Shown here piece by piece: positions 9,906-64,000 of a stretch of 64,000 bases of DNA. The notes beneath the pieces were generated by a model, which was given only the letters and a program-made list of their open reading frames with translations, was not told where the DNA came from and did not search any database. The position numbers were made by a program, and so were the translations under genes. Position 1 is the stretch's first letter. Every line of letters starts with the position of its first letter. The stretch comes from Candidatus Latescibacterota bacterium (GTDB lineage Bacteria; Latescibacterota; UBA2968; UBA8231): contig OZ242005.1 in the NCBI GenBank assembly GCA_965204725.1, forward strand, positions 896,001 through 960,000, read 5' to 3'.

Positions 9906-9935
9906 GCTTGTTCGATCGTTAGAGAGGAGTATTCC

Positions 9936-10700: not shown

Positions 10701-10718
10701 CCGCGCTAGCCGGTAAGA

Positions 10719-10747
10719 ACTGGATTCCCGCTTGCGCGGGAATGACG
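10719..10747. repeat. Palindromic REP/dRS3-like repeat, copy 1 (ATTCCC-N8-GGGAAT)
   Basis: ACTGGATTCCCGCTTGCGCGGGAATGACG; 28/29 identical to 53625-53653; intergenic. Confidence 0.8.
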
Positions 10748-10835
10748 AAAGCCGGCTCTACGGCTTGTTCAACATGACCCAAGGTGGGTCTTCAGACAGC
10801 CTCTAAGGGGCGCCTTTCTGCCCGACGCCCGTTCC

Positions 10836-41793: not shown

Positions 41794-43530
41794 CTAGTCT
41801 GCGGCCGGCGTCGCGCACTCCGCGACCCGCACGATCGCGTCCAGTTTCTCGCTAATCTCGGGATCAATTTCGCTATCGGGGATGTGCTCGGCCAACTCGT
41901 AGAAATTTTTCTTGGCCATTAGGTTGGGTAGGCCGAGCGTCTTGAAGTAGGACTTGAAGAGCGGGATGAGAAAATCATCGCTGGCTTTGATGTCGGCACT
42001 CCAAGGAGACCCCTTGCCAAGCGTCTTTAGGGCCGATTCTACGTCCTCAATGGCTTGGCTCATCGCATTTTGACGCTTCCCCTGTTCAGCCGACGTAAAC
42101 AGCGATCCCGGCGCAGCATCCGCCGCCGTCGCCCCCGCGTATGCTTTGAGTGTGGCCCGCGAGCAAATGTAGTTTTCGATCTCCCGGCGCTCCCAGATTA
42201 GGTATTCAACCGGGGACAAATCGAGAGGCTCCGATTCAAGGCGATCGAACAGGGCGACTCCACCAAGCGCGGGGAGAGCCTCCCGCAAGCCGTGGTAGTG
42301 ATTCTGAACCGCCGGGAGCTGGTTCCCTACGTATTTGACGAATGGCCGCTCAAGCACCTCAATCGCGCGGTCGTGTCGTAGCCGTCTAGCAAAAGCCTGC
42401 ATTATCGCTAAATCCGTTGAACCCTCTAGGTAGAGTACCCAGCCGGTTTGTTTCGCTTGGTAGTACTGCTCAAACCCGATCTCCCTGAGTGCTTTCAAGA
42501 CCTGACTGCCGCGGTCGTCAATGCGGTGCGGTTGGCCGACGAAAGCAACGACCAAGTCCCGGTCCGCGGCTTCGTTGAGCAGCACTTCAGAGTGACTGGC
42601 GGCGATGATCTGGCTGGTGCTGGCGCCCGCCACATCGGTGAGCAGGCGGTAGATCTGGCGCTGGCGAAGTATCTCTAGATGCGCGTCAGGCTCGTCTAGG
42701 AGCAAGACGGCACCGGGGTTGGCGTACATATATGCGAGGAGCAGCAGCGTCTGTTGCAGCCCCCGCCCGGCGGACGACAAATCGAGCTCAGCACCCTGCT
42801 CGCGATAGGTCATTGCGATCTCGCCGCGCTCGGCAATGTAGCGCGGCGGACGGAGTTTTGAGCCAAACAGGCTCTCAATCTGCTCGACGAGTTCGTCCCA
42901 CTTCGCTTCATCTTCGTCGCGAATCCGAAAACAGAGGTTGCGCAACACTTCGGCGGTGCGTCCCTCGCCGATCCGAACATTGATGGCACCGGCATCAAGG
43001 CGCGTTTCTGTAGCGGTAAGCCCCGACATGGGCGGTAGGAAGGCGGTCTGGACGCTGCGAGCGGCGGCCGGCACCGACATGCGATCGGCGACCGTGTCGT
43101 CAGACAGCCGGAGCGGCCGGCAGTAGAACGATTCGTCATTGGCGTAGTCGAACTCCAGCCCACACGTCCAGCCTTGGCCGTTGGTCACCCCTTCTACGAT
43201 GATGTCGATGCGGATATTGCTGGTGCGCTGCTGGCCCTCGACTCGGCGCACGTCTCGCACGTGTAGCCCACGCCACAGGAGGTTCGCGTCTGGAATCGGA
43301 ATGGCCACTAGGTCGCGGCGGTTGACGGTGACGCCGGGGCGCTTCTCGGGCGTGCTCTTCCCGGATCGCTTCTCGTTCCAGCGCTTGAGGCCGATGTCCC
43401 ATAAGGCGAGTGCCTGCATGGCCGAGGTCTTCCCAGAGTTGTTGGGACCGATAAAGACCACCGGACTCCCGAGTTCGATCTCAACTTCGTCAAAGCGTTT
43501 GAAGTTGTGGATGGTGAGCTTGGTAAGCAT
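41794..43530 (-). CDS. ABC-type ATPase + TOPRIM-like domain (OLD-family nuclease-like)
   Basis: IHNFKRF, GPNNSGKT, SSAGRG, LLLDEPDAHL, ASHS; C-terminal LYLEGSTD...FD...REIENY. Confidence 0.7.
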   Translation of the reverse strand: MLTKLTIHNFKRFDEVEIELGSPVVFIGPNNSGKTSAMQALALWDIGLKRWNEKRSGKSTPEKRPGVTVNRRDLVAIPIPDANLLWRGLHVRDVRRVEGQQRTSNIRIDIIVEGVTNGQGWTCGLEFDYANDESFYCRPLRLSDDTVADRMSVPAAARSVQTAFLPPMSGLTATETRLDAGAINVRIGEGRTAEVLRNLCFRIRDEDEAKWDELVEQIESLFGSKLRPPRYIAERGEIAMTYREQGAELDLSSAGRGLQQTLLLLAYMYANPGAVLLLDEPDAHLEILRQRQIYRLLTDVAGASTSQIIAASHSEVLLNEAADRDLVVAFVGQPHRIDDRGSQVLKALREIGFEQYYQAKQTGWVLYLEGSTDLAIMQAFARRLRHDRAIEVLERPFVKYVGNQLPAVQNHYHGLREALPALGGVALFDRLESEPLDLSPVEYLIWERREIENYICSRATLKAYAGATAADAAPGSLFTSAEQGKRQNAMSQAIEDVESALKTLGKGSPWSADIKASDDFLIPLFKSYFKTLGLPNLMAKKNFYELAEHIPDSEIDPEISEKLDAIVRVAECATPAAD

Positions 43531-47333: not shown

Positions 47334-48136
47334 ACGACGAGAGATACTTGCGGATTGTGCTCGAATGCCTTCGAGTATCCGCAGAGTATAGGCCAAAGTT
47401 CGGTCGGGGAAGTAGAGACAAGGGCCTGTCGTTGGACGAGTTTCAAGTGCTTTATGGCAGCGATCCCTTCTATTCTTGGTTTGGCCTTGACAATCCGTTG
47501 ATGTACGCCGCCCATAAGGCCGCGGGCGGCATGACAAGCGTTTACAGGCAGATCGGGAGCGGATGCGAAGAGTTGGTTCGCACCATCTTGCAGGATTGCC
47601 TAGGGCTTTCCGCAGAAGACGCGAACTGGTCTTATGAACTCCCAAGGCCCGATGGCAAGACGAGGAGGCTCCACCTCGACGGGCGAGTAATTTTGGACAA
47701 GATCGGCGACGAAGCCTCTCGTAGGCGTTTTCGCCAATGGATGCAGGCTTCGGCAAGCCTTGTAAACGTGGATTCTGGCGTATCTGCAACCTTAAAGGGC
47801 ACTGTCTTTGAGATTCGCCAAGGCTACAAAAGCAAGGACTCCAAGAGGCAAAACGCCGATATCGCCAACGCTGCGAACGCCTACGCACAAGCCTACTTGC
47901 CTTGCGCCTTAATCCTGTCCACGCAGATCGACTCGGAGGTCCAGTTGCGATACAGGGCGCAGAAGTGGTCCATCCTCACCGGTGTAACCGGGGTATCAGA
48001 TCCTTTGGCATCCACCTACGATTTTCTGCAGGAGGTCGTAGGTTATGACTTAGCGGGATTTTTTAGCCGGAATCAGGATGCCCTGAAAAGTGAAATCGAC
48101 TCGATTCTCGGCAAACTGCTGGAGCCGTCGCCATGA
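47330..48136 (+). CDS. Putative type II restriction endonuclease
   Basis: TTG start overlaps the msrB stop; LDG...[10 protein letters not shown]-(D/E)XK-like; coupled to a methyltransferase; less GC-rich than flanks. Confidence 0.6.
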
Positions 48137-49374
48137 CCGAGATGCTTCGACGTTCGCTCGCGCAAAGGGCAGATTACACCCACAAGCACAACGCCGAATC
48201 CGGGCGGCACGGTTGGCTGCGCCTGACTCCTGCGTACTCGCTCAAAATTGTCGATGAAGTTCTGCGGGCTTACGAAGGAATCGCCGAAATCAATGTTTTC
48301 GATCCTTTTTGCGGGACCGGGACCACTGCTCTTTGTGCGGGGTATCGCGGGCACACCGCAGTCACCGTGGAAATCAATCCCTTTCTGGTCTGGTTTAGTC
48401 GCACCAAGACCGACTCTTATTCCACACAGGTGATTTCCGAACTGAATCAGGTTGGCCATGCGGTGTCTGACGACATCCGCCACGGCAGGGCACCGGGCGC
48501 ACCAGCACCGCGCATGTACAACATTGAACGGTGGTGGAACGCCACCGCACTCGATTTCCTCTGCGCCCTGAAGGGTGCCATAGATTCCAAGTTTGCCGAA
48601 GAGAGCAAGCAACGTTCTTTGCTTTTGGTCGCGTTCTGTAGGACGTTGATTCACCTTTCCAATGCCGCCTTTAATCACCAGTCCATGTCCTTTAAGTTGG
48701 GCGTTCAAACAACCTTTGATTTCGATACCGACTTGTGCGGAATTTTTATTAAAAACCTGAACTTCGTTCTAGGGGGAGCGAGGCAGAATCCAGCCGGCCG
48801 GGTATGCGTCCACCGCGCCGACTCTCGCCGGCTGGCAAAAAGAGATGCCGACTCCGTCGATTGCGTCATTACTTCGCCTCCGTACGCGAACCGGATGTCG
48901 TACATTCGCGAGCTTCGCCCATACATGTACTGGCTCGGCTATCTCGTGGATGGCCGCGATGCCGGGGAAATGGATTGGGAAGCCATTGGAGGGACTTGGG
49001 GGATTGCTACCAGCAGACTAGAAAAATGGTCGGCTCCAGCGCACGGGTACCAATCTAGACTACTGAGCGATGCCGTGAAAAGAATTAGGAAGGCAGAAAA
49101 CAGAAATGGCCGGCTTTTGGCCAACTACGTTTCAAAGTACTTCAGCGATATGTGGAGTCATTTTCAATCGCTGATCGGCGTACTCAACCATGGAGCGACG
49201 ATTCACTACATCGTAGGCAATTCAACGTTCTATGGAGTCTTGGTCCCGGTTGAGCAGATCTATGCGGATATGTTGTCCCGGCTCGGGTTTTCCAACGTGG
49301 AGTGCGTTCCCATCCGAAAGCGCAATTCCAAAAAGGAGCTGATCGAGTTTGACGTACGGGCGCGCTGGAAATAA
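48133..49374 (+). CDS. DNA amino-methyltransferase, probably N4-cytosine (alpha motif order)
   Basis: Motif I DPFCGTGTT precedes motif IV TSPPY; ATGA overlap with the upstream gene. Confidence 0.85.
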   Translation: MTEMLRRSLAQRADYTHKHNAESGRHGWLRLTPAYSLKIVDEVLRAYEGIAEINVFDPFCGTGTTALCAGYRGHTAVTVEINPFLVWFSRTKTDSYSTQVISELNQVGHAVSDDIRHGRAPGAPAPRMYNIERWWNATALDFLCALKGAIDSKFAEESKQRSLLLVAFCRTLIHLSNAAFNHQSMSFKLGVQTTFDFDTDLCGIFIKNLNFVLGGARQNPAGRVCVHRADSRRLAKRDADSVDCVITSPPYANRMSYIRELRPYMYWLGYLVDGRDAGEMDWEAIGGTWGIATSRLEKWSAPAHGYQSRLLSDAVKRIRKAENRNGRLLANYVSKYFSDMWSHFQSLIGVLNHGATIHYIVGNSTFYGVLVPVEQIYADMLSRLGFSNVECVPIRKRNSKKELIEFDVRARWK

Positions 49375-52904: not shown

Positions 52905-53258
52905 TTATCCTTCATCCCTTGCCAAGAGTATTTCGGCTTTCTGTAAAATCGCATCTACGGTCTCCGCGGGCAAAGGACATATTAAGGTCGCATTTCTCGC
53001 CCACCAATCCATGCTTTTGACCTGATCAGCCAGAATAACACCTATCACCGCCAGCCCCGCGGGAATGGCAATCTCAAAGGGATACCCCTTCACTTGATTG
53101 GTGATTGGGCAGAGAATCGCCAAACGGGTCTTGCGGTTATAGGTTCCCGGTGAAAGCACAACGGCGGGCCGACGACCGGCTTGCTCGTGTCCCGCTTGCG
53201 GATTGAAGTCAATCCACACTACATCGCCGCGCTGTGGGACGTACTCGGTTGAATTCAC
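52905..53258 (-). CDS. mazF: MazF/PemK endoribonuclease toxin
   Basis: PQRGDVVWIDFNPQAGHEQAGRRPAVVLS...DQVKSMDW. Confidence 0.93.
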   Translation of the reverse strand: MNSTEYVPQRGDVVWIDFNPQAGHEQAGRRPAVVLSPGTYNRKTRLAILCPITNQVKGYPFEIAIPAGLAVIGVILADQVKSMDWWARNATLICPLPAETVDAILQKAEILLARDEG

Positions 53259-53497
53259 TATGCTTCACCACCCACCGCCTGTCCGGTATCTACTTCGCCG
53301 TGCAAGTTGTCTGCGGTCACTTGGGCTAAAAGGTCGTCCAATTTCAAACTGGGCGTACTCACAGGCGCAACGACCAATTCCGCACCGCGAAGCGACAATT
53401 CGACTGGCGAATTGGGTTCAATCCCAATCTGGGTAGCGAGCGATTGAGGAATACGCAGGGCCAAACTATTGCCCCATTTCTGTATAAGAGCTTCCAT
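53258..53497 (-). CDS. mazE: MazE/AbrB antitoxin
   Basis: Start ATG 53497 after AGGAGG; KWGNSLALRIP; 1-bp overlap with mazF. Confidence 0.93.
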   Translation of the reverse strand: MEALIQKWGNSLALRIPQSLATQIGIEPNSPVELSLRGAELVVAPVSTPSLKLDDLLAQVTADNLHGEVDTGQAVGGEA

Positions 53498-53624
53498 AAT
53501 TTTCCTCCTTCCTACAGAACTCCTGAAATTCGTCGGGTGTATTGTTAATGGTAACAATTCCCTTGAATCGCGCTATGCGAGGCGCGTCCGCTTGCATAGA
53601 TATAGCAATCCTACATCCTTCAAG

Positions 53625-53721: not shown

Positions 53722-56700
53722 TCAAAGCTCCTGTCCTCGGCTCGCCAACTCCTCCAAATTCCACGCGACTGGGATGCGCATCCGGCCCTCGTTTTTGCGG
53801 TCGAAGAGCAGGTAGTTTTCGCGCAGCCCAAAGTAGAACAGGTCGCGGGTCAGCTCTACGTCCTTTTGGCAATAGTCGGCAATCAAGTCCAGCCGCCCCT
53901 GTTTGAACCACCTAAGCGCGTCGAGCCCGTCGGCGCTCTTGGGCGCGTTGAGCGTGGCCCGGCCTAGTGAGTCGAGACTCACTCGGTAGCGTAGCTGCTG
54001 GTGGACCTCGCGCAGAATATCGAGCGTGTTGAGCTGGCGGAAGTCGAATGGGCTATACCCGCGCAAGACCGAATAGTCAAAGCCAAGGATGTTGAAGCCG
54101 ACGATCAAATCGGCCGCCTGTAAGTGCTCTAAGAGCCGGTCGATGTCTTTCTCAAGATACGTGGTGCAACCCTGCTCGTGGCTGTCCCACACCACGCCGA
54201 CCGACAGGCCCATCAGATGGGCTTTGTTCCAGCCGCCAACTTCGGCGGCCGAGCGCTGGGTTTCGAGGTCGAACACGACCACGCGCGGGCCTTGCTCGGG
54301 CCGCTCGTCGGCTGCGCTTTCTTCTTCTTGTTCCCACTCGGCGAAAATCGGCGGAGCGTCTGCGACCTCGGCTGTAGATGGAGTGCGCTCAATGGCCCGA
54401 TGGCCGGTGAGTACGCCGAGCAGGTGGATCGCGCCGGCCTTGTCGAGGGGGACGTTGCCCGCGCCGCATGTGGGAAAGTGGATACAAGAGGGGCAGCCGA
54501 TCAGGCAATCGCAGGTTTCGACCATGGTCCGCGTCAGGTCCAAGAGGCGGTCGAGTTGGGCAAAGCCCTTTTCGGCGAGGCCAATGCCGCCGGGGTGATA
54601 GTCGTACACGAAAATCGCTCCTTTGCCGAGTTGTGGGTGCTGGGGATAGCATATTCCGCCGACATCCGTGCGGTCGCACAAGGCCAGCAGGGGGAAGAGC
54701 GACTTCACGGCGTGTTCAATGGCGTGGATCGAGCCCATGTAGTGGTGCTGGTGGCGGCTGAGGTCGGCCTTGAAGTGGGCGTCGAGCTCAATCCAGAAGC
54801 CTATGGTCTCAACGTGCTCCACCGGCGATTCGAGGGGGTGTTTGCTGAGGACGACTTGGTCGCCGACGCGGATCTTTTCGTAGCCCACCACCTGCGAGCT
54901 GACCTTGAGCCGGCCCAGCCGCGCCATAAAGCCCTGCAACGGCCGCGAGCGCAATTCCTCTAATATCTCGGTATCCTTTTCCGTGCGGGCGCGGGTAAAG
55001 TACGCCACGTGTACTTCCTCGGCGTAGATCTGGCCCTGCTGGGGATTGCGGTCGCCGATCTCGTACTGGCGGCCGCGATGCAAGTAAATCGCGCCTTTGT
55101 AGCACTCGCCATGCACTTGGCCGCCGCTGACCGTGCCGATTGGGTTGTGGTCGCGGTCGACGATGCGATACGACTCGCCGATGGTGCGCATGTTGACCAA
55201 GCGGTGCGGCTGCTTGCGGGCGGCAAACCAAGCGTCGCCCTCGGCATTCTGCAGCAGCGCCCCCTCCTCAGTCAGCGCGTCAAGGGTCGCCCGATAGTTG
55301 GGCAGCGCGTACTCGGGTTCGCCGGCCGCGAGGGGGAGCTCGCGCGCCGCACACGCGAGGTGGTTTTTGAGGATGTACTGATTAGTCGGGTCCACTACGG
55401 CGTCCTCCAAATCGCGAGTAAAAAACTCCTTGGGGTGCCGCATAAAATACTGATCGAGCGCGTCGGGAGACGCGATGAGGAGGATTAGGGACTCGCGGCC
55501 AGCGCGGCCCACGCGGCCGGCACGCTGCCAAGTGTTGATGATAGAACCCGGATACCCCACCAACACGCAAATATCCAAGCCGCCGATGTCAATGCCCAAC
55601 TCCAAGGCCGACGTGGCGACCACGCCCATGAGTTGGCCGGCGTTGAGTGCCTGCTCAATCTGGCGGCGCTCGCTGGGCAAATAGCCCGCGCGATACGAGG
55701 AAATCCGCGCCTGCAAGTCGGGGCGGCTCTGGGTGGCCCAGCGGTACACGAGCTCGGTGGTGATGCGGGCGCGGGTAAAGACAATCGTGCGATAGTCCTT
55801 GAGTACGCTGGCGCGCAGCACGTGCGCCGCGAGGGTGTTGGGGCTTTCGCTCGGGTTGACAAACACAAAGTGGCGCGTCGCGGCCGGCGCGCCATGGTCC
55901 TCAATCGCGCAAAAGGAGCGGTTGAGCAACTCGCCCGCTAGCTCGCGGGGGTTGCCCATCGTCGCCGAGCTGGTGATGTACACCGGATCGGCCCCGTAGT
56001 GCGCACAGATGCGGTTCAAGCGGCGAAAGAGGTGCAGCACGTGGGAGCCAAAGACGCCGCTGTACGCGTGCAATTCGTCGATGACCACGTAGCGCAGGCG
56101 AGCGAAAAAGCCGGCCCAAGCCTCGTGGAAGGCGAGGATGCCCGAATGCAGCATGTCCGGCGTGGTGAAAAGCACCTGCGGCGGCGTGGTGCGAATTTGC
56201 CGGCGGCGGTGGGCCGGGGTGTCGCCGTCGTAAATAGCCGCTTTCAGGGTGCCTCCCAAGCCCAGCATCAAGCCGTTTAACTCGTCGAACTGATCCTGCT
56301 CTAGGGCCTTGAGCGGGAAGATGTAGAGCGCGTGCGCGTCCGGGTCGTTGAGCAGCGTGGCCAGTACGGGTGCGTTGTACACTAAGGTCTTGCCCGAAGC
56401 CGTGGGCGTGGCTAGGGCCAAGTGCTGGCCTGCCAACACTTTTTGGATGCCCTCGGCTTGGTGCGTATAGAGCGCGGGAATGCGGGCGATTTTGAGGATG
56501 CGGGCCAAGGCCGGAGGCAGGCCCGATACGTCGCGGACTAGGCGCGCCGGGCGCGCCGGCAAGGTCTGGTGATGGACGACCTCGTTGCCCAAGATGCGGC
56601 GTTTGAGAAAGCGGATGTGCTCGGCGAGCCCCTCGGCGTCGCAGATCAAGGCTTGGTTTCCTGAAACAGGGTGGCGAAAACGAGCGGGGCGGAGAGTGAG

Positions 56701-56754
56701 AATAGCGAAGCCGTTGGAATGGGGCAAGGCGGGCGGCAGCAAACCCCTTCGCAT
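53722..56754 (-). CDS. DEAD/DEAH helicase + DUF1998 (MrfA/Hrq1-like) fused to an RNase H-like 3'-5' exonuclease (YprB/MrfB-like)
   Basis: TPTASGKT, DELH, QRAGRVGR, CDCLIGCPSC; C-terminal VFDLET...GFN..FD...YCQKDV. True start uncertain (possibly TTG 56649). Confidence 0.85.
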   Translation of the reverse strand: MRRGLLPPALPHSNGFAILTLRPARFRHPVSGNQALICDAEGLAEHIRFLKRRILGNEVVHHQTLPARPARLVRDVSGLPPALARILKIARIPALYTHQAEGIQKVLAGQHLALATPTASGKTLVYNAPVLATLLNDPDAHALYIFPLKALEQDQFDELNGLMLGLGGTLKAAIYDGDTPAHRRRQIRTTPPQVLFTTPDMLHSGILAFHEAWAGFFARLRYVVIDELHAYSGVFGSHVLHLFRRLNRICAHYGADPVYITSSATMGNPRELAGELLNRSFCAIEDHGAPAATRHFVFVNPSESPNTLAAHVLRASVLKDYRTIVFTRARITTELVYRWATQSRPDLQARISSYRAGYLPSERRQIEQALNAGQLMGVVATSALELGIDIGGLDICVLVGYPGSIINTWQRAGRVGRAGRESLILLIASPDALDQYFMRHPKEFFTRDLEDAVVDPTNQYILKNHLACAARELPLAAGEPEYALPNYRATLDALTEEGALLQNAEGDAWFAARKQPHRLVNMRTIGESYRIVDRDHNPIGTVSGGQVHGECYKGAIYLHRGRQYEIGDRNPQQGQIYAEEVHVAYFTRARTEKDTEILEELRSRPLQGFMARLGRLKVSSQVVGYEKIRVGDQVVLSKHPLESPVEHVETIGFWIELDAHFKADLSRHQHHYMGSIHAIEHAVKSLFPLLALCDRTDVGGICYPQHPQLGKGAIFVYDYHPGGIGLAEKGFAQLDRLLDLTRTMVETCDCLIGCPSCIHFPTCGAGNVPLDKAGAIHLLGVLTGHRAIERTPSTAEVADAPPIFAEWEQEEESAADERPEQGPRVVVFDLETQRSAAEVGGWNKAHLMGLSVGVVWDSHEQGCTTYLEKDIDRLLEHLQAADLIVGFNILGFDYSVLRGYSPFDFRQLNTLDILREVHQQLRYRVSLDSLGRATLNAPKSADGLDALRWFKQGRLDLIADYCQKDVELTRDLFYFGLRENYLLFDRKNEGRMRIPVAWNLEELASRGQEL

Positions 56755-56768
56755 CTCAGGACAGCAGT

Positions 56769-57941
56769 TTATCGAAAAATGTGCCCCACGTCGGTAAAAT
56801 GCCGCACGCTGGCATGGGACAGTTCCGGGGTGAGATGGCCGGCGTAGATGACGTAGCCTTTCTGGGTGGAGGCCGCGATCTGCTGGAACTGCGCGATCCC
56901 TTTGGCAAACTCTGGATGAAACGTCATGGCCGATTTGATTTCAATGGGGATTAACTGCCTGTTTTGCCGGAACAACAAATCGACTTCGTGGCCTTTGTTG
57001 TCGCGGTAAAAGTAGAGTTCAGGTTCTTTTCCCGCGTTGAGTCTGGCTTTCAAGGCTTCGATGACGATCATGTTTTCAAAGAGATTGCCGATCAGTGGAT
57101 CCCGGGCCGCCAGCGCGGGCGATTCAATGCCGAGCAAGTAGGACGCGAGCCCGACCTCGGTAAAATAGATTTTGGGCGATTTGACGATGCGTTTGCCAAA
57201 GTTTTCAAAATAGGGCTTCAACCTGAAAACGGTGTGCGATGCTTCGAGTACCGAGAGCCATTCTTTGAGCGTGGTGCTCGACACCCCCACGTCGTTGGCC
57301 AGCGAACTCAGATTCAAAACTTGGCCGACGCGGCCGGCGAGCAGGCGCGTGAAATGCTCAAAATCGGTCAGGCTCCTCAGATGGATCATTTGCCTAACGT
57401 CGCGCTCGATATAGGTTTGACAGTAATTTCGGTACAGGCGAGTCGGATTGACTTTTTCGCTGTACAGGCGGGGCATAAAGCCCTGATAGATCCATTCGTC
57501 GCGCGTGTGTTTGATGCGGGTCGCTTTGAGTTCGGCTATCGACAAGGGGAGCAGGCGCAAGAGGGCCGTGCGTCCGGCGAGGGATTGAGCAACGGTTTCT
57601 TGCAGACGCAACTGGTGGTGGCCGGTGAGAATGTATTGCCCGCGTTGCTGGCTGCTGTCCGCGAGGACTTGGATGGTTGAGAGCAGTTCGGGTACGCGCT
57701 GAATTTCGTCGATAATAACGGGCGGGGGAAATTGCGAGAAGAACGCGTGGGGATCGCTCATCGCCAGCCGGCGCACATCAGGTGCTTCGAGGTTTGCATA
57801 AGCGTAATTTGGAAACTGCATCCGCGCCAACGTGGTTTTTCCCGCTTGCCGTGGACCGATGATGGTCACCACGGGAAATTCGCTTGCCGTCGCGACCAAT
57901 TCTCTGGCAATTTGTCGCAAAATCACGGTTTTAAGCTCCAT
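56769..57941 (-). CDS. AAA_14 ATPase with DUF4143 domain
   Basis: Start ATG 57941; GPRQAGKTT, IIDEIQRVP, KSPKIYF, EVDL...IEIKS. Confidence 0.85.
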   Translation of the reverse strand: MELKTVILRQIARELVATASEFPVVTIIGPRQAGKTTLARMQFPNYAYANLEAPDVRRLAMSDPHAFFSQFPPPVIIDEIQRVPELLSTIQVLADSSQQRGQYILTGHHQLRLQETVAQSLAGRTALLRLLPLSIAELKATRIKHTRDEWIYQGFMPRLYSEKVNPTRLYRNYCQTYIERDVRQMIHLRSLTDFEHFTRLLAGRVGQVLNLSSLANDVGVSSTTLKEWLSVLEASHTVFRLKPYFENFGKRIVKSPKIYFTEVGLASYLLGIESPALAARDPLIGNLFENMIVIEALKARLNAGKEPELYFYRDNKGHEVDLLFRQNRQLIPIEIKSAMTFHPEFAKGIAQFQQIAASTQKGYVIYAGHLTPELSHASVRHFTDVGHIFR

Positions 57942-57975
57942 TCGCGTTGATGCTACGCGAGGAGAAAATAAAAGG

Positions 57976-58016
57976 ATCGGTACAGATCTCAAGTTACACT
58001 TGAAATTTGTACCGAT
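57976..58016. repeat. 18-bp imperfect inverted repeat upstream of the AAA_14 gene
   Basis: ATCGGTACAGATCTCAAG-ttaca-CTTGAAATTTGTACCGAT, 2 mismatches. Confidence 0.7.
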
Positions 58017-58071
58017 TTTCAGGCATACCAGTTGCCGCGCAACTTGGAAGTTGATGGCCGCGAACCCGTCG

Positions 58072-58112
58072 TTTGCTTGACAAATAAAGCAAATGCTCTA
58101 CATTCTAAGCAT
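58072..58112 (+). promoter_or_regulatory. Sigma70-like promoter of the pAgo operon overlapped by two TGCT-N10-AGCA palindromes
   Basis: TTGACA 58077-82 and TACATT 58099-104 (16 bp spacer). Palindromes at 58074-58091 and 58094-58111. RBS GGAGG at 58128. Confidence 0.65.
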
Positions 58113-58142
58113 ATTAGTTGAAAGGCCGGAGGTCATGTGAGC

Positions 58143-58487
58143 ATGAGTCACGAAGAGCAACTCGGTTCCTACCTCAAACGCGCTCGGAATACTGCGGGTC
58201 TGACGCTGCGGGCGGTTGAAGGGGAGACCGGTATATCTAACGGATACCTTAGCCAACTCGAGAGTGGCCAAGTGCGGCGTCCATCGCCGATGAACTTGCA
58301 CAAGCTGAGCGAACTCTATCGGCTACCCTATGCTGAAGTGATGGAAGCAGCAGGGTATCCTATACCTTCGACTCAATACAGCAACGAAGAACAGCGGTTC
58401 TTCGCGAGGCTTGGGGAGACTTCTAATGAAGAGAAAGAGGCACTGCTGGAGTATTTGGAGTTCATGCGAACTCGGAGAAAGCGGTAA
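58143..58487 (+). CDS. XRE-family HTH transcriptional regulator
   Basis: LGSYLKRAR..GLTLRAV..GISNGYLSQLESG..PS; start ATG 58143 or GTG 58137. Confidence 0.9.
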   Translation: MSHEEQLGSYLKRARNTAGLTLRAVEGETGISNGYLSQLESGQVRRPSPMNLHKLSELYRLPYAEVMEAAGYPIPSTQYSNEEQRFFARLGETSNEEKEALLEYLEFMRTRRKR

Positions 58488-58493
58488 CACATA

Positions 58494-59435
58494 ATGAGGT
58501 GGTCAGTGTCGAAGGCAAAGCAGTTCCAACGTTGTCAACGCCAGTGGTACTACAAGGAGATCGTCGGACGCCACTCTGCACCGGCGGGCAGTACTCGGCG
58601 TGAAGTCTATCTCCTCGGATTGCTGAAAAGTATCAGCCAGTGGCGCGGAGATATAGTCGATAACGTCCTCACTAGGGCCTTTCTCACTTGGCACAAGCAC
58701 CAGGTACGGCTCGATCCCGAAAAGATAATCTTCAATGCACGACGACAGTTTGATGAGCAGCTTGCCGTTGCAAGAGAGCATCACCTGCACAAGCCGGGTC
58801 TCACTCCATCGAAGTGGGAAAATTTCGTCGCATTCAGATGCATGGAATACGACAAGTCCATCCCGCAAGATGAACTGGATGCGGCTTGGCAAGAGATCGA
58901 ACAGGCGATCCGGAATCTATTCGAGATGCGCCCCGTTGCTGAGGCTATGCAGGGTACCAATGCGCTGGTAGCGCAACGCTCGTTGCAGTTCCAGCACTCG
59001 GACATGAACGTAGTAGCCAAGCCCGATTTGGTGGTCTTCTCCAAAGAAAGGCCACCCGTGATCATCGACTGGAAGGTGCATGCTTTCGGTGTTCAAGAGG
59101 CTTGGTTACAGCTTGGCATCTATGCCCTTGCTCTTTCACGTGCGAAACCGCACAAGGATTTTCCCCAAGATTGCTGCTCGTGGGCACCTACCGACGTTAA
59201 ACTCCTCGAAGTGCAATTGCTCAAGCAGGATTTAAGGGAATACCAGCTTTCCAAGAGGGATGTTACCCGTCTGGAAAACCATATCGCCACGACAGCGTAT
59301 GAGATGCTGTCTGCTGTCGGAACCGTGCGACCGAAATATGAGGACTTGATCCCCGAAGACTTCACTGTGACGCGCTATCCGACTACGTGCCAACAGTGTT
59401 CATACAAACGCGTTTGCTGGGAGGGAGAGGCATGA
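58494..59435 (+). CDS. Cas4/AddB-like PD-(D/E)XK nuclease with a putative Fe-S cluster
   Basis: C14 plus C299/C302/C308; KPDL...IIDWK...QLGIYAL RecB-type motifs. Confidence 0.85.
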   Translation: MRWSVSKAKQFQRCQRQWYYKEIVGRHSAPAGSTRREVYLLGLLKSISQWRGDIVDNVLTRAFLTWHKHQVRLDPEKIIFNARRQFDEQLAVAREHHLHKPGLTPSKWENFVAFRCMEYDKSIPQDELDAAWQEIEQAIRNLFEMRPVAEAMQGTNALVAQRSLQFQHSDMNVVAKPDLVVFSKERPPVIIDWKVHAFGVQEAWLQLGIYALALSRAKPHKDFPQDCCSWAPTDVKLLEVQLLKQDLREYQLSKRDVTRLENHIATTAYEMLSAVGTVRPKYEDLIPEDFTVTRYPTTCQQCSYKRVCWEGEA

Positions 59436-61813
59436 GCATGCTCGAAACCAACATCTTCGCCATCGAGAATCTGGATGCGCTGAAAACGGACTACGTTCTT
59501 TACAGAATTCGAGGTCTAACGAGGGGAGACAACGAGTATTTCCAGAACAAGGACGAGATCGCGAGAAAGCTAAGCTATGACCTCCAGAGGCCGGCACTCG
59601 TGATCGAAAGAAACGGCCACCCGTACCTCGTACTGCCCGCTGACACGCCTCCCCCGCCGCAGCCATTCTCACTTGTACGTGTGCAGGTGTACCTCGACAA
59701 ACAGAAGGAGTCGCTCACACTCGACTATGCGAAGCGGAATCATGAGACCGACGATATCTGCCTTCGCTTTCTCAACTTCTTCGCAGTCCAAGGCAGGTAT
59801 CGCAATGACAAGCGTTTGTGGCAACCGCGGTCCGGTCAGCCCTTCTTTGAGTACAAACCAGTCAAGACGATCAGAGGAATCGATGTCTTCCAGGGTTTCT
59901 CCGCCCGAGCGGTCATCACGCCCGACAATGGGATTGGCATTTGCCTCGATCTGCGCACGAAGTTTGTCGCGAGCAAGCCCCTTGACGCTAGACTGAAGCG
60001 TGACGGGTTCAGGCCATATCGCGGACAGCACTTCATCTATCGGTTCAAGGGCTGGTATGGGGTGCAGCTACAGGACTACTGCGATCTGAACGCCTCTGAA
60101 GCTCACATCGATACCGGAAACTGCTCAGTTTACAAGTACCTCAGACGCGAGTCCCCCAAGCCGCTACCTCAGCAGCTTGCCAATCTCCCTCGGGACGCAG
60201 CACTCGCCTACTACCAGACAAACCGCGGAAACCGTGTATACGCGAGTGTGGGCCTTTGCCATCTCATCTATGACACGCGGCATCCTGAGGTTCAGCGCCG
60301 GCAGGGGATGATGACCCCACAGCCCCACGAACGGGATCGCAAGATCCAAGAATATGCAGCCAAGTATCTACAAGGATTGCAGCTCGGACGCACTCGGCTT
60401 GAAGTGTCGCGTACGCCCATAACGGCACCCCGCAAGGTGTTCCAAGCACCAGATATCGAGTTTGGGGGTGAACACGTGCTCTCCGTCCGCCGGACGGCGG
60501 GTGCTCACATAGCGACTATGGATACACTGGGAAAAAAGAAGCAGCGGTTGCTTATGCGTGAGGACGCAGGCTTCTTCGTCAAGCGTCTCCTTGGTCCGCA
60601 GTACCTGATTATGCCTGAGAGCGTTTACAAGACATGGGGGAAACAGTATATCAAAAATTTAAAGCAGACGGTTGAACGGCTCTACGGTCCAGCCGAGCGA
60701 GACGAAGTACTGCCAGACGTACCCGTGTACGACCCGAAGGTAATCACCTACAACGACTGTGACTCAGGTCATACGTATGTCGAGCAGGGACGGGCAATCT
60801 TGGATGCCGCCGAGAAACATCGAGTGCGTGGTGGATACGGGTTGATAATGATTCATGACGCCTCGGACCGCGAGGTCAGGCAGGAGGACCAACTCGCCGC
60901 TATGCTCTCCCAGCAGTTTTGGGAGCAGCGTGATATGCGCATTACCGTAAACCATACGAAGACCGGGAGCGAATGCTACAGTCCGGTGAATGGTCAACAT
61001 GGGGCGTACGTTGTGAACCCGAAAAAGCGGGGCAAGCTCAATGGCTACCTACGCAATGTGGCGTTAAGTAAGATCCTTCTGAACAATGAAATGTGGCCGT
61101 TTGTCCTAGCCACCCCACTGCATGCGGACGTGACGATCGGCCTCGATGTGAAGCGCAACACAGTGGGCCTGACAGTCGTGAGCGATGGCGGACGCAGCAT
61201 CGCGACCTTATGTCGCAGGTCCAGTCAAAAGGAGAAGCTGACCCGCCGTCAGATCGAGACGCTCCTGACCGAACTGTTGCGCCATACAGCCGAGAAGCAG
61301 GCCGTCAAGGAGATTAAGGAGATCGTCATTCACCGCGACGGGCGGAGCTTCCAGTCCGAGATTGACGGTGCAATCAACGCGAAGAAGACCCTCCAAGCGG
61401 AGGGCCTCCTTCCTTCTGACGTGCGCATCACGATCTTGGACGTAAGCAAGACAGCCATGACTCAAGTGCGCCTATTCGACGTGAAGCGCACAAACGGTCG
61501 CTTACTACGGGTAGAGAACCCACAGAACGGCACGTACGTCTTTCTAGGAAATCAGGATGCGTACTTATGCTCAACAGGGCGAGAGTTCGGGCACTCCGGC
61601 ACCACCCAGATGTTGCATGTGCGGTATGAACTGCCTGGGCTGCCGTTTGAGCAGGCACTTGAAGACCTGTACTACCTAACGACGCTGACGTGGAGCAAAC
61701 CTGACGACTGCTCGCGCTACCCAGTGACGATGAAGCTGACCGACAGGTGGTTGTGGCAGGATGCAACGGAGTACAACCAAGACGTGCTCGTATATGGCGT
61801 CGAGGAGGGTTGA
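59432..61813 (+). CDS. ago: Long prokaryotic Argonaute, predicted catalytically active (DEDD)
   Basis: 793 aa from ATG 59432 (ATGA overlap). PIWI motifs IGLD572V, QKE601KL, IVIHRD636G, LTTLTW...RYPVTMKLTD771. Confidence 0.9.
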   Translation: MSMLETNIFAIENLDALKTDYVLYRIRGLTRGDNEYFQNKDEIARKLSYDLQRPALVIERNGHPYLVLPADTPPPPQPFSLVRVQVYLDKQKESLTLDYAKRNHETDDICLRFLNFFAVQGRYRNDKRLWQPRSGQPFFEYKPVKTIRGIDVFQGFSARAVITPDNGIGICLDLRTKFVASKPLDARLKRDGFRPYRGQHFIYRFKGWYGVQLQDYCDLNASEAHIDTGNCSVYKYLRRESPKPLPQQLANLPRDAALAYYQTNRGNRVYASVGLCHLIYDTRHPEVQRRQGMMTPQPHERDRKIQEYAAKYLQGLQLGRTRLEVSRTPITAPRKVFQAPDIEFGGEHVLSVRRTAGAHIATMDTLGKKKQRLLMREDAGFFVKRLLGPQYLIMPESVYKTWGKQYIKNLKQTVERLYGPAERDEVLPDVPVYDPKVITYNDCDSGHTYVEQGRAILDAAEKHRVRGGYGLIMIHDASDREVRQEDQLAAMLSQQFWEQRDMRITVNHTKTGSECYSPVNGQHGAYVVNPKKRGKLNGYLRNVALSKILLNNEMWPFVLATPLHADVTIGLDVKRNTVGLTVVSDGGRSIATLCRRSSQKEKLTRRQIETLLTELLRHTAEKQAVKEIKEIVIHRDGRSFQSEIDGAINAKKTLQAEGLLPSDVRITILDVSKTAMTQVRLFDVKRTNGRLLRVENPQNGTYVFLGNQDAYLCSTGREFGHSGTTQMLHVRYELPGLPFEQALEDLYYLTTLTWSKPDDCSRYPVTMKLTDRWLWQDATEYNQDVLVYGVEEG

Positions 61814-61817
61814 AATC

Positions 61818-62177
61818 ATGAGCGACCGGAGTTTACAATCAGGCTACTACAACACGATCAGCTACCTCGCCGAGCTTCTAGATGAGGCCTTGATGCAGAT
61901 CAAGCTCGCACGGGGCGGCGCACCCTCGTCAGAGGTCGAAAAGGTCTCCAAGATGTTGGAAGTAGCGGCTAGCGAGGAGTGCCGCGATCTCTCGACAGCA
62001 TTCCTGCGCTTGATCCTTCGAGATGAGCTAGGAGAGCAACAGCAGGCTTGGCAAGAACTAAGCGTACGACTTGGGCAGGGAGTGTGCGACGAGCATGACG
62101 TAGAGATGATGGAGCGGATTGCTGAAGTCGTGGACACCGAGCGGGCGTCGGCGTTTCGCAAAATGAGAGGGTTCTAG
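61818..62177 (+). CDS. Small acidic, predicted alpha-helical hypothetical protein
   Basis: 119 aa from ATG 61818 with RBS GAGGAGG, 4 bp after the ago stop; no recognisable motif. Confidence 0.7.
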   Translation: MSDRSLQSGYYNTISYLAELLDEALMQIKLARGGAPSSEVEKVSKMLEVAASEECRDLSTAFLRLILRDELGEQQQAWQELSVRLGQGVCDEHDVEMMERIAEVVDTERASAFRKMRGF

Positions 62178-63308
62178 GTGTTTGAGGAGTATATCAATGG
62201 AACTCTCGGCGAGTTGGAACGACGGGCACGAGTACTGCGGGCAAAAATTCCGCGAGACCTGCCAACCTACTATGCAACGCTCGTGAAGTCGTGCAACGAA
62301 CGGCTTAAAGAACTATTGTTTGCCCTCCGCGACCTGCGCGATAATCCTGCGTGGCAGGATGAGAAATTTCGCCCAGAGCGCCAGCGGCGTCTGCGCAGGA
62401 TCGTGACGGCTCTCGACAGGCTGGAGTCTGGCGGCATCACGGCCCTCTGTCGTGCGAACGAGGACGACCATTACTTCAACGGTCTGCTCGAACGCCTTCG
62501 ACGGGAAATCAAGTATCCGGGAGAACTGCCCACGGTCTCCTCGCTCTCGCAGCGTTACTTCTATGTCGATACGGATCTCAACCTCATGAGTGTACCGTTG
62601 GCCGAGCGACATTTTCTTCTCCATTTGCCGGATCTTTACCATGAACTAGCGCACCCACTCTTGGTAGCACGCGACGATTCGGTCATCGAGCCCCTACAGG
62701 ATAGGATGTTGGAGTCGGCGGCGGTGGCGATGGAGCACTTTCACACGATAGCACACGAAAGGGAAGGTGGGCGCACTCCAGAGCAGGAACGGAATCGGCT
62801 GCGGACATGGGAGTTCTACTGGGGCAAGTACTGGATCTTCGAGTTCTACTGCGACCTGTTCGCCACCTACACCCTAGGACCAGCCTTCGCGTGGTCACAC
62901 GTGCATCTGAGTGCCAAGCGGGGCGTGAACCCGTACGACTATTTGATGGAGCAGCATCCGGCCGACGCTGCGAGGATGTCCGTGCTCCTCATCGGCCTGC
63001 GCGAGATAGACTATGATGAAGAGGCGGAGGCAATCGCTAGGGTGTGGCAGTCGGTGATCGGCTCGTCGAGCTATAAGCCCCCGTCCGATTTCAGGACGTG
63101 CTATCCCCAAGATATGCTCGAAAAAATAGCCAAGCAGGGCCTTGAAGGAGTTAAAGCGATCGGATGCCGCATCGCACACGCTAAGTGCGATGACGAAATC
63201 CACACGCTCCTGAACGAGGCTTGGCAACGGTTCTGGGATAACCCGAGCGAGTACGCCGCTTGGGAGGATCAGAGGACGAGGAAGTTATCTAAATCGCGTC
63301 TGGCTTAG
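62178..63308 (+). CDS. HExxH zinc metallopeptidase-like protein (gluzincin, M48/M56-like motifs)
   Basis: GTG immediately after the previous stop; YH155ELAH159, E222FYCD226LFA, H260PADAAR. Confidence 0.7.
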   Translation: MFEEYINGTLGELERRARVLRAKIPRDLPTYYATLVKSCNERLKELLFALRDLRDNPAWQDEKFRPERQRRLRRIVTALDRLESGGITALCRANEDDHYFNGLLERLRREIKYPGELPTVSSLSQRYFYVDTDLNLMSVPLAERHFLLHLPDLYHELAHPLLVARDDSVIEPLQDRMLESAAVAMEHFHTIAHEREGGRTPEQERNRLRTWEFYWGKYWIFEFYCDLFATYTLGPAFAWSHVHLSAKRGVNPYDYLMEQHPADAARMSVLLIGLREIDYDEEAEAIARVWQSVIGSSSYKPPSDFRTCYPQDMLEKIAKQGLEGVKAIGCRIAHAKCDDEIHTLLNEAWQRFWDNPSEYAAWEDQRTRKLSKSRLA

Positions 63309-63362
63309 ACTGGATCCCATACTTTTCAACTATATAGGAGCCTTTAGGGGCGGCGGTTGACT

Positions 63363-64000
63363 ATGCTTCAAATAGATTACAGCGATCCAAGATACGAGAA
63401 TGCGGCGGCGGCGATTCTGCAACGGCACGACAATAATGAACCCGAGGCTAATATCACTAGTGCGGTGCGGGACTTTTTGCTCTGCACGGGATTGGTTGAT
63501 GCCAATGAAGTCGCCGAGGAAGTGGCACCGTCGGGGCACTCGGTGCGGGCTGTGGATTTGAAGGCGTCAAACACGTTTATCGAAATCAAGAAGCGCGTCA
63601 GCACGACCGGCGGCTTTAATCCCAATGAAATCTATGTGAAGCAGTTGGATAAATACTTGGCGGAATCCATGACGTACGAGCGGAAAGCGCGGATGGGCGT
63701 TCTCACAGACGGGCGGTACTGGCTCCTGCGCTGGCCGAATGCCGGCGAGGTCAAAACGACTAAGCCCTATGCTTTTACCCTAGAATCGACGGCTGACTGG
63801 CTGCTTTTGTACGAGTGGCTGCGCGACGAGGTCATCGGTACGCAGGATGACATTCCGGCTCGGCGCACTGAGGTCGAGCAGAATTTTGGGCCTAACAGCC
63901 CGTTGTATCGGCGGGATATTGACGCCCTAAACTTGCTCTACCAAGGAGCGAAGGACCGCGAAACCGTCCGCGTCAAGTGCCGGCTGTGGGAAACCTTGTT
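63363..64000 (+). CDS. Probable type IIG / type I-like restriction enzyme, N-terminal nuclease domain (3'-truncated by window edge)
   Basis: Open frame from ATG 63363 to the window end, absent from the ORF track: PEANIT...VDL...FIEIK...QL..Y...GVLTDGRYW (HSDR_N-like). Confidence 0.7.
   Translation, partial: MLQIDYSDPRYENAAAAILQRHDNNEPEANITSAVRDFLLCTGLVDANEVAEEVAPSGHSVRAVDLKASNTFIEIKKRVSTTGGFNPNEIYVKQLDKYLAESMTYERKARMGVLTDGRYWLLRWPNAGEVKTTKPYAFTLESTADWLLLYEWLRDEVIGTQDDIPARRTEVEQNFGPNSPLYRRDIDALNLLYQGAKDRETVRVKCRLWETL

Follow-up and report, generated by a model that had tools for sequence, protein, structure and literature searches.

A stretch of 64,000 nucleotides from a Candidatus Latescibacterota bacterium (assembly GCA_965204725.1, contig OZ242005.1, positions 896,001 to 960,000 of the forward strand; hereafter the window, in whose numbering positions are given) encodes near its end a prokaryotic Argonaute (pAgo), and the locus raises the question of which class this protein belongs to and with which genes it travels. 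A preliminary description of the DNA had proposed a member of a DNA-guided, RNA-cleaving clade. We consider it quite probable that the gene encodes an intact long pAgo of the PliAgo group, that it occupies the third place in a compact, mobile cassette of five genes, and that the last two of these genes, here called D1 and D2, form a predicted additional arm of the system. The features concerned are the following.

58071-63283, + strand: mobile five-gene cassette, given by the DNA match shared with locus L001, a metagenome-assembled genome (MAG) titled Latescibacteria
58137-58487, + strand: helix-turn-helix (HTH) regulator of the XRE family, 116 aa, GTG start (ATG at 58143)
58494-59435, + strand: Cas4-like PD-(D/E)XK nuclease, 313 aa (Pfam PDDEXK_1, 3e-18)
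59432-61813, + strand: long pAgo of the PliAgo group, ATG-started open reading frame (ORF) of 793 aa
60857-61048, + strand: MID pocket residues D476, H508, T511 and Y539, with K510 (alignments to PliAgo)
61145-61744, + strand: codons of the catalytic tetrad, D572 at 61145, E601 at 61232, D636 at 61337 and D771 at 61742, with K768 at 61733 (alignments)
61745-61810, + strand: acidic C-terminal tail of 22 residues (translation)
61818-62177, + strand: D1, helical protein of 119 aa with a GGAGG-like site before its ATG
62178-63308, + strand: D2, predicted gluzincin-like metallopeptidase of 376 aa, HELAH at 62640-62654 and E222xxxD226 at 62841-62855

The pAgo frame is a real, conserved gene and not a chance product, since a word-index protein search yields 37 relatives at E <= 1e-10 and a scan of one genome per prokaryote species yields 133 relatives, the best 80 of which were kept as loci L001-L080. 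Its ATG overlaps the stop codon of the upstream nuclease gene (ATGA), and both strings quoted in the preliminary description, RITVNHTKTGSECY and NGYLRNVALSKILLNNEMWPFVLATP, are found in its translation. Pfam returns a Piwi match below threshold only (22.9 bits versus a cut-off of 28.9), which fits a divergent Argonaute. The slicer tetrad, previously described as intact, is present as DEDD: D572, E601, D636 and D771 align with D563, E592, D626 and D762 of PliAgo according to a HMMER alignment and the published residues. In an alignment of 32 relatives (A1; 38 sequences less P0002, which is identical to the window, P0004, the partial P0013, P0030, P0033 and P0037) D572, E601 and D771 do not vary, and conservation of D636 is 90% or more. 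Among 81 family rows the tetrad reads DEDD in 77 and DEQD in two, while a contig end truncates the other two. K768 (within MKLTD), which precedes D771 by three residues, is the equivalent of PliAgo K759 and is at least 90% conserved. The acidic tail, estimated earlier at about 22 residues, has exactly this length: D771 is followed by RWLWQDATEYNQDVLVYGVEEG, which contains five acidic and one basic residue. This tail is kept in kind across the family (EDAxEYDxDAL-like), and the confidence of the structural model is low at its very end.

As sequence, model, pocket residues and gene neighbourhood agree, the assignment of the protein to the PliAgo group of DNA-guided, RNA-cleaving pAgos is supported. 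A phmmer search against all PDB chains lists nine sequences, headed by three forms of one Argonaute of 789-791 aa (7r8f, 7r8h, 7r8k; E about 1e-128 to 7e-130). The 7r8 entries are named Pseudooceanicola lipolyticus Argonaute (PliAgo) by Foldseek, and the match at 7e-130 (7r8f) spans residues 4-787 of the pAgo. The remaining matches comprise 8xih and 9wmd (6e-49; 6.6e-49 for 9WMD, which is MbpAgo), VbAgo (3e-26 and 4e-24) and KmAgo (6e-5); TtAgo (3hjf) reaches an E value of 0.8 only, and CbAgo is absent from the nine sequences listed. The AlphaFold2 (AF2) model of the pAgo, built on 32 relatives, has a predicted local distance difference test score (pLDDT) of 87.1 and a predicted template modelling score (pTM) of 0.85. 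In a Foldseek search with this model PliAgo entries occupy ranks 1-6 with template modelling (TM) scores of 0.87-0.91 (7r8i, 0.89/0.91), compared with 0.80 for 8xih_B, 0.58/0.61 for CbAgo and, by query length, about 0.55 for TtAgo. PADLOC assigns the protein to pAgo_II (6e-260). PliAgo being the best match by E value and TM score, His508 and Tyr539 being kept in the pocket, and the operon being of the corresponding type, the clade membership proposed at the outset is borne out.

The traits of the PliAgo group have been described by Lisitskaya et al. 2022 (PMC9360449). They include the DEDD tetrad (D563, E592, D626, D762) and a pocket without the (Y/H/R)KQK residues, in which R467, H498, S501 and Y530 of PliAgo contact the 5'-phosphate. 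K759 stands near the last Asp of PliAgo, in place of a His in other pAgos, and the C-terminus of PliAgo is disordered and dispensable for guide binding. The published operon of the group consists of an HTH regulator, a PD-(D/E)XK Cas4-like nuclease and the pAgo; in the window, a nuclease directly upstream of the pAgo and an HTH regulator are both present. The text of that paper reports the use of DNA guides on RNA targets, cleavage at 9'/10', and a 5'-phosphate binding independent of Mg and of the C-terminus for PliAgo and RslAgo only. The likeness of the window's pAgo to PliAgo (7R8F-7R8K) thus extends over length, domain order (N-L1-PAZ-L2-MID-PIWI), tetrad, pocket His and Tyr, the Lys before the last Asp, an extended C-terminus away from the pocket, and the upstream HTH and Cas4-like nuclease genes (PMC9360449). 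The two proteins differ in the pocket, D-H-T-Y with K510 in the window versus R-H-S-Y with D500 in PliAgo, at an identity of about 32%, and the window's pAgo belongs to a separate subclade on a long stem.

The preliminary description had likened the protein to PliAgo, RslAgo and MbpAgo as one group; the comparison with PliAgo holds, while MbpAgo (6.6e-49 only) has to be placed in a sister group. We take MpaAgo to be the same M. paludis protein as MbpAgo. MpaAgo has been placed in the PnyAgo sister group, has a variant (HKQK) of the standard pocket, and is encoded in an operon with a sigma factor (PMC9360449). In this PnyAgo/MbpAgo group, according to the same source, guide binding depends on Mg, cleavage occurs at the standard 10/11 site, and a sigma-70 family factor takes the place of the HTH regulator. 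Membership of the window's pAgo in the PnyAgo/MbpAgo group was rejected because the pocket residues of that group are absent, the operon encodes an HTH and not a sigma factor, and the match to 9WMD reaches only 6.6e-49. Features common to both are related long pAgos (E 6e-49 to 9WMD and 8XIH), a Cas4-like nuclease upstream, and D1- and D2-like genes downstream; HKQK pocket, Mg dependence, 10/11 site and sigma-70 factor set the sister group apart (PMC9360449). VbAgo (9V65; PMC13219720) resembles the window's protein in that it targets RNA and continues beyond the last catalytic Asp into an extended acidic C-terminus. This C-terminus auto-inhibits VbAgo and fills the nucleic-acid channel in the apo state (PMC13219720). 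VbAgo is, however, distant (E 2.7e-26, PIWI part only) and has a standard Y/K/Q pocket with Mg (PMC13219720).

Two other interpretations of the pAgo are to be weighed against this assignment, both of which turn on the pocket for the guide 5' end. That the MID pocket is non-canonical, as previously claimed, is confirmed by the alignments, which reveal no (Y/H/R)KQK set; D476, H508, T511 and Y539 occupy the positions of R467, H498, S501 and Y530 of PliAgo, and Lys510 stands where PliAgo has D500. According to the one interpretation the protein is a canonical long-A pAgo acting with DNA guides on DNA targets, its odd MID strings being mere divergence. Domain order and DEDD tetrad indeed match those of active long pAgos, yet TtAgo reaches an E value of 0.8 only, CbAgo is unlisted by phmmer, both give TM scores of 0.55-0.61 versus 0.89-0.91 for PliAgo, not one (Y/H/R)KQK residue is present while the PliAgo-type His and Tyr are invariant (81/81 family rows each), and the operon is that of the PliAgo group. 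We therefore rejected the canonical long-A class of TtAgo and CbAgo, which is exceedingly improbable for this protein. According to the other interpretation the fold is that of the PliAgo group, and a subclade marked by D476 and K510 binds the guide 5' end differently (in register or in tolerance of a 5'-OH), so that cleavage position or guide preference would be unlike those of PliAgo. In PliAgo R467 contacts the 5'-phosphate and the double mutant R467A/Y530A loses tight guide binding (PMC9360449); the combination of D476 with K510 occurs in the window and its closest relatives; and Arg at the first pocket position is accompanied by Asp or Glu at position 510 in 13 of 15 rows of the 81-row alignment, which hints at a paired site, so that D476 and K510 may represent a possible charge swap. 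The reverse pairing is weak, however, as just 3 of 29 ingroup rows combine Asp or Glu at 476 with Lys or Arg at 510. Moreover, the first pocket position varies throughout the group (Arg in 15 and Asp in seven of the 81 rows, otherwise mostly Ser, Glu or His). Since, according to PMC9360449, only the His and the Tyr of the pocket are absolutely conserved in the group, Asp at 476 may be normal variation. Finally, an Arg or Lys four residues further on (R480 in the window) is common in the 81-row alignment and could substitute for the missing Arg. On balance we judge an altered guide handling to be improbable.

The place of the protein within the PliAgo group was derived from a tree of 83 rows (FastTree only) rooted on two rows which were verified as MbpAgo-type (1040 bits to 8xih and 9wmd). 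In agreement with the assignment made above, the window lies inside the ingroup and is separated from both outgroup rows at 100; within the ingroup it groups with MAGs titled Latescibacteria and Gemmatimonadaceae, again at 100, on a long stem. PliAgo is matched at 583 bits by an ingroup row from Mesorhizobium, compared with 438 bits for the window's pAgo, and accordingly nests in the same ingroup. Phylum labels are scattered over the tree (26 label changes versus a minimum of 12). Among protein clusters, excluding the window's own, ten full-length ones show 69-95% identity to the pAgo and a 470-aa partial protein labelled Gemmatimonadota shows 81%, all others reaching 47% at most. Among genomes (best 80 of 133), the nearest are the MAGs titled Latescibacteria (89%) and Gemmatimonadaceae (76%), and the rest do not exceed 46%. 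The relatives span 13 phylum labels, Planctomycetota, Chloroflexota, Acidobacteriota, Verrucomicrobiota, Bacteroidota, Pseudomonadota and Cyanobacteriota among them; two archaeal MAGs also belong to the relatives. The host lineage is uncultured, but the family is not rare; of the earlier remark on a poorly sampled lineage, the part concerning the host stands, while the family, with 133 relatives under 13 phylum labels, is not poorly sampled.

The cassette moves as one unit and is horizontally mobile. When the whole window is compared by blastn with L001, one long match is obtained which covers 58071-63283 at 89.5% nucleotide identity, the sole other match being 105 nt at 21482-21586 (75%), far from the cassette. 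In L002 the match extends over 58144-63281 (79.8%). The flanks are unrelated. The GC content of the cassette is 0.53-0.56, versus about 0.58-0.64 in most of the window. Its five genes, in the order HTH, Cas4-like nuclease, pAgo, D1 and D2, are all on the + strand with gaps or overlaps of 0-6 nt. Near-identical copies (58071-63308) are present in public sequencing runs labelled sponge or marine metagenome or with coded organism names: 12 of 24 listed rows hold at least half of the sampled words, the 20 holding rows stem from 10 studies, and the best-matching runs may be the window's own source. No RNA run is among the public runs listed as holding the cassette. Between the start of the upstream AAA gene and the left edge of the cassette a 19-nt inverted repeat is found at 57976-58016 (89% complementary, 3-nt loop), outside the DNA shared with L001.

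Both genes upstream of the pAgo have family matches. The HTH regulator matches HTH_31 (7e-13) and HTH_3 (8e-11) in Pfam and, weakly, capH in PADLOC (2.3e-8). It is present in 75 of the 80 related loci, and conserved residues in its C-terminal part are G73-Y74-P75, R91, G93, E99, L103, Y106, L107 and F109. The nuclease, found in 78 of the 80 loci, matches the PADLOC model Aga_Cas4-like_Nuc at 2.8e-108. At least 90% conserved in 76 sequences are D178, D192, K194, Q206 and Y210 as well as C14, C299, C302 and C308; the four cysteines presumably hold an Fe-S cluster, as is general for Cas4.

D1 and D2 are universally linked to the PliAgo group and to its sister group. D1 evolves fast, such that tblastn detects it in only 15 of the 80 loci. 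A hidden Markov model (HMM) made from 59 D1 ORFs, however, places it directly after the pAgo in 77 of the 80; the three misses have 0 nt of sequence after the pAgo, and D1 is thus present in 77 of 77 loci having any sequence beyond it. In alignment A3 (A2 and A3 each comprise 45 of 75 available loci, chosen for spread) its N-terminus is conserved, with M1 invariant, S2 at least 90% conserved and the consensus MSxxGLxSxxY, and so is its C-terminus (LExLAxxLxxER...RxRG). No Pfam, PADLOC or NCBIfam family matches D1. D2 is found by tblastn in 74 of the 80 loci, always about 370-450 nt past the pAgo, and hence in 74 of 74 loci with room for it, the six loci lacking it having at most 428 nt after the pAgo. 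In L058 an insertion-sequence-like ORF is inserted between pAgo and D2.

In 45 D2 sequences H155, E156, H159, E222 and D226 are invariant, ExxxD lying 63 residues beyond HExxH; we take HExxH...ExxxD to be a gluzincin signature. The AF2 model of D2 (pLDDT 95.1, pTM 0.93) has long helices at its N-terminus; a three-stranded sheet spans 119-140, HExxH lies on the helix 152-163 and ExxxD on the helix 202-233. The invariant HExxH helix following a three-stranded sheet and the ExxxD on a later helix are shared with thermolysin- and neprilysin-like gluzincins; unlike these, D2 matches no known peptidase family in sequence or fold. Pfam, NCBIfam, PADLOC and PDB profiles yield no match to such a family, and a comparison of the D2 profile with PDB sequences returns coiled-coil noise only (best 6r17, E 0.0035, N-terminal helices). 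Foldseek finds nothing for the D2 model at E <= 0.001 (best E 0.47 in the PDB and 0.25 in BFVD). In the Atlas, D2 falls into unnamed clusters at 0.97-0.98, leads towards U49, M48 and M13 reaching 0.76-0.84 only. Peptidase_U49 has no match in the window's own genome and none in 14 control genomes either, which makes this result uninformative.

A profile search among 1.84 billion representatives reveals 342 relatives of D2 at E <= 1e-30, 844 at <= 1e-10 and 2463 at <= 1e-3. A CHAT (caspase-like) domain is present at the C-terminus of two of them, P0045 and P0068 (609 and 632 aa), and is matched in Pfam at 36.7 bits (above the cut-off; E 4.3e-9) and 21.1 bits (below; E 2.4e-4). A search of metagenome contigs for the fusion P0045 yielded three partial relatives only and not its own locus. 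Fourteen clusters of 711-799 aa carry a C-terminal extension; in P0072, the only long form scanned, this extension has no Pfam domain and holds a second HExxH.

The pair is found beyond the PliAgo group as well. In L091 and L092, where the operon encodes an extracytoplasmic function (ECF)-type sigma factor, a 198-aa protein, the nuclease and an MbpAgo-type pAgo, the latter is followed by a 147-aa D1-like and a 374-aa D2-like protein; for the MbpAgo-type locus hhalign relates the D2-like protein to D2 at 100% (E 4.8e-43) and the D1-like protein to D1 at 85% (E 6e-6). In L094 a D1-/D2-like pair likewise stands behind a pAgo that has diverged still further. The pAgo preceding the pair in L135 is divided over two ORFs: at 7107-11024 (- strand) of this locus, from a kin genome, a divergent pAgo appears as a 410-aa N-terminal half and a 345-aa PIWI half with a 444-aa opposite-strand ORF in between, either a split form or an insertion.

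This protease-partner pair of PliAgo-type pAgos is apparently undescribed. In PMC9360449 the main text and the legend of Fig. 1b name regulator, nuclease and pAgo only, although Supplementary Fig. 1 may show more genes. Neither "protease" nor "peptidase" occurs in the text of Ryazansky et al. 2018, and term finds in the text of PMC6299218 and PMC13346755 form part of the basis. Literature searches pairing pAgo or PliAgo with protease, metallopeptidase or HEXXH gave nothing relevant, supplements not being covered.

How D1 and D2 may relate to each other is indicated by a predicted complex, whose score is 0.84, the best of three controls attaining 0.02. The mark of 0.84 is reached by 58 of 80 solved complexes and by two of 110 mismatched pairs, counts which hold only roughly because our own alignments were used. 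As no similar complex has been solved (D2 is without a match in the PDB), the score does not derive from a known structure. Agreement between the runs amounts to at least 89% of contacts, with a partner pLDDT of at least 83. In the predicted interface residues 2-13 of D1 face residues 127-133 (sheet edge), E156, H159, 163, E222 and 225 of D2, which would put the most conserved segment of D1 into the catalytic cleft of D2 in the manner of a substrate or pseudosubstrate inhibitor. Protease inhibitors that insert their N-terminus, such as tissue inhibitors of metalloproteinases (TIMPs) and serralysin inhibitors, are alike in that the N-terminus of D1 is predicted at the metal site of D2.

Whether D1 and D2 act together with the pAgo is addressed by exceptional loci. 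At L005:7956-10727 and L015:7956-10757 the pAgo frame runs stop-free into D1, giving ORFs of 923 and 933 aa; L005 stems from a MAG, in which an assembly indel error is possible. Elsewhere the junction of pAgo and D1 is usually an ATGA overlap, or the genes are a few bases apart. L070 was rejected as a further fusion since its pAgo ends in a stop codon of its own and the long frame is a different one. A search of 168 genomes from the window's own phylum gave a D2 match in 18, including four of 30 other genomes of the same genus. The 13 other genomes of the phylum with a strong D2 comprise five with an intact five-gene cassette, two with an interrupted one and six deletion variants. These six (L121, L124, L128, L130, L131 and L132) have lost the nuclease and most of the pAgo at four or more different breakpoints, the HTH, a full-length D1 and an open D2 being kept. 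In G407 (L133) D1 is intact and the neighbouring D2 is fragmented. That D1 and D2 work with the pAgo is suggested by their constant linkage and by the read-throughs; the survival of the pair where the pAgo is lost suggests a self-contained HTH-D1-D2 switch or an addiction pair.

Several of these observations speak against the reading which we favour, or restrict it. On the side of the pAgo, identity to PliAgo is only about 32%, and the Arg467 contacting the phosphate in PliAgo is replaced by Asp, for which reason guide-end preference or register may differ. The tree contains neither PliAgo nor RslAgo, and TtAgo, CbAgo and RsAgo were likewise left out of it. With regard to D1 and D2, the complex of the two is a prediction. 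Since the HMM for D1 was built from 59 of the same loci, only its further hits are independent. D2 is called a peptidase on the strength of its motifs and of the way in which its secondary-structure elements follow one another, as no solved zincin fold matches. Six kin genomes keep HTH, D1 and D2 after loss of the pAgo, so that the pair is not strictly dependent on it. Lastly, the window's own genome, which has one pAgo, encodes a second, distant D2-like protein beside a type IIG restriction enzyme and away from any pAgo. This second protein (371 aa, E 4e-32; L099:3832-10850, on G000:C1 near 3.10 Mb) is encoded after a 150-aa ORF, a 1186-aa type IIG restriction-methylase and an AbiU/AIPR protein. 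The 150-aa ORF was rejected as D1-like (hhalign 0.3%).

Alternatively, HTH, D1 and D2 may form a self-contained module instead of an effector arm of the pAgo, a view compatible with a pAgo of the PliAgo group. The module could be a repressor-plus-protease switch of the CapH/CapP or ImmR/ImmA kind which turns the operon on, or else an addiction pair resembling a toxin-antitoxin system, with D2 as toxic protease and D1 as its inhibitor, which stabilises the cassette. Apart from the 6 of 13 kin genomes retaining just these three genes and the distant D2-like gene beside AbiU and a type IIG enzyme, the capH-like match of the HTH (2.3e-8; 1.8e-13 in L135) is in favour of it, as is the predicted position of the D1 N-terminus in the D2 cleft, which fits an inhibitor; CapH and CapP have been described as a two-protein regulator of many immune operons. 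However, D2 matches no CapP/M78 model (PADLOC none at E <= 0.01), and Pfam Peptidase_M78 matches one of 45 D2 members at E 0.16. Furthermore, the sister group has an ECF sigma factor and the 198-aa protein in place of the HTH, D1 and D2 being kept, wherefore D1, and not the regulator, is the constant partner; and the pAgo reads in frame into D1 in two loci. The cassette resembles CapH/CapP, IrrE/DdrO and ImmA/ImmR in that a single defence operon encodes both an HExxH protein and an XRE HTH (here matching capH weakly), and HTH and D2 stay together after loss of the cargo. It departs from these switches in that no model tried identifies D2 as an M78 or CapP protein, that its first gene encodes the HTH and its last one D2, and that D2 has a further partner, D1, which is predicted to occupy the active site. 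We regard the self-contained module as a reasonable alternative, though one with odds somewhat against it.

For the favoured reading, a PliAgo-group pAgo in a cassette with a predicted D1/D2 arm, the following course of events may be envisaged. By homology to PliAgo and RslAgo, the pAgo would bind short 5'-phosphorylated DNA guides in a metal-independent xHxY pocket, the C-terminus remaining unused, and would slice complementary RNA at a site shifted by one position towards the guide 5' end relative to the usual one; the nuclease would probably supply guides or degrade targets. We infer RNA slicing by the window's pAgo from its identity of about 32% to PliAgo. In the predicted complex the N-terminus of D1 would lie in the zinc site of D2, which might constitute a proteolytic switch or an effector arm.

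A more far-reaching proposal, which we consider rather unlikely, is that DNA-guided, RNA-targeting pAgo systems of both the PliAgo and the MbpAgo type are not stand-alone slicers and instead provide protease-coupled, RNA-sensing immunity. The DNA-guided pAgo, with guides obtained via the Cas4-like nuclease, would recognise invader RNA and, via D1, which is encoded right after the free acidic C-terminus of the pAgo, would release or activate D2. D2 might then cleave D1, the regulator or host targets, resulting in a change of transcription or in growth arrest. If true, type III-E Craspase would have an Argonaute-based analogue in this system, and D2 would found a new metallopeptidase family without solved relative. 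Craspase combines gRAMP/Cas7-11 with the protease TPR-CHAT, whose substrate is Csx30, and involves a sigma factor. The resemblance consists in an RNA-targeting programmable effector with a protease and a small partner, in the ECF-type sigma factor of the sister group, and in the two D2 relatives from the database which carry a C-terminal CHAT. On the other hand, effector and protease families are unrelated in the two systems, the window's D2 has no CHAT, and control of D2 by the pAgo is conjectural.

The pAgo adds a divergent new member to a known class; of the two results, the D1/D2 pair is the more interesting. With about 32% identity to PliAgo and its D-H-T-Y pocket, the protein would be a divergent addition to the DNA-guided RNA nucleases that are sought as RNA tools. 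The natural function of PliAgo-class pAgos is described as open in PMC9360449, which points to the nuclease only. Every locus with enough sequence, in both groups, encodes a predicted protease together with a small protein which, by prediction, blocks the active site of that protease. The pair also persists where the pAgo has been lost. Taken together, these observations suggest that experiments in vitro with the pAgo alone may overlook half of the system.

Further features in and around the cassette are listed below.

52905-53557, - strand: pair of MazF/PemK toxin and MazE antitoxin (Pfam 1.9e-25 and 2.1e-10)
53722-56754, - strand: DEAD/MrfA-type helicase, 1010 aa, with MZB zinc domain and weak C-terminal RNase H-like match
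56769-57992, - strand: AAA_14/DUF4143 ATPase (PADLOC candidate system PDC-S01, 2e-96)
58077-58104, + strand: promoter-like site TTGACA-16-TACATT upstream of the HTH gene (consensus scan, 10/12 matches)
63357-64000, + strand: start of a type IIG Eco57I/MmeI-like restriction-methylase, 1035 aa (Pfam N6_Mtase, Eco57I; continued in L096:58-3165)

The promoter-like site lies within the stretch shared with L001; by count such sites are not significant (three found versus 3.6 expected). None of the neighbouring genes considered could be retained as part of the system: the restriction-methylase gene at 63357 occurs in 0 of the 80 loci and lies outside the shared DNA, the upstream AAA gene likewise occurs in 0 of 80, and the helicase gives six weak, non-syntenic matches in the 80 loci. 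Taken together, helicase, AAA ATPase, pAgo cassette, restriction enzyme and toxin pair make this end of the window look like a defence island. An AAA_21/AAA_15 (AbiEii/OLD-like) ATPase at 41794-43530 (- strand) and a DNA-methylase-like gene at 48133-49374 (+ strand) sit amid ordinary chromosomal genes, namely those for GlnD, an ammonium transporter and a histidine kinase.

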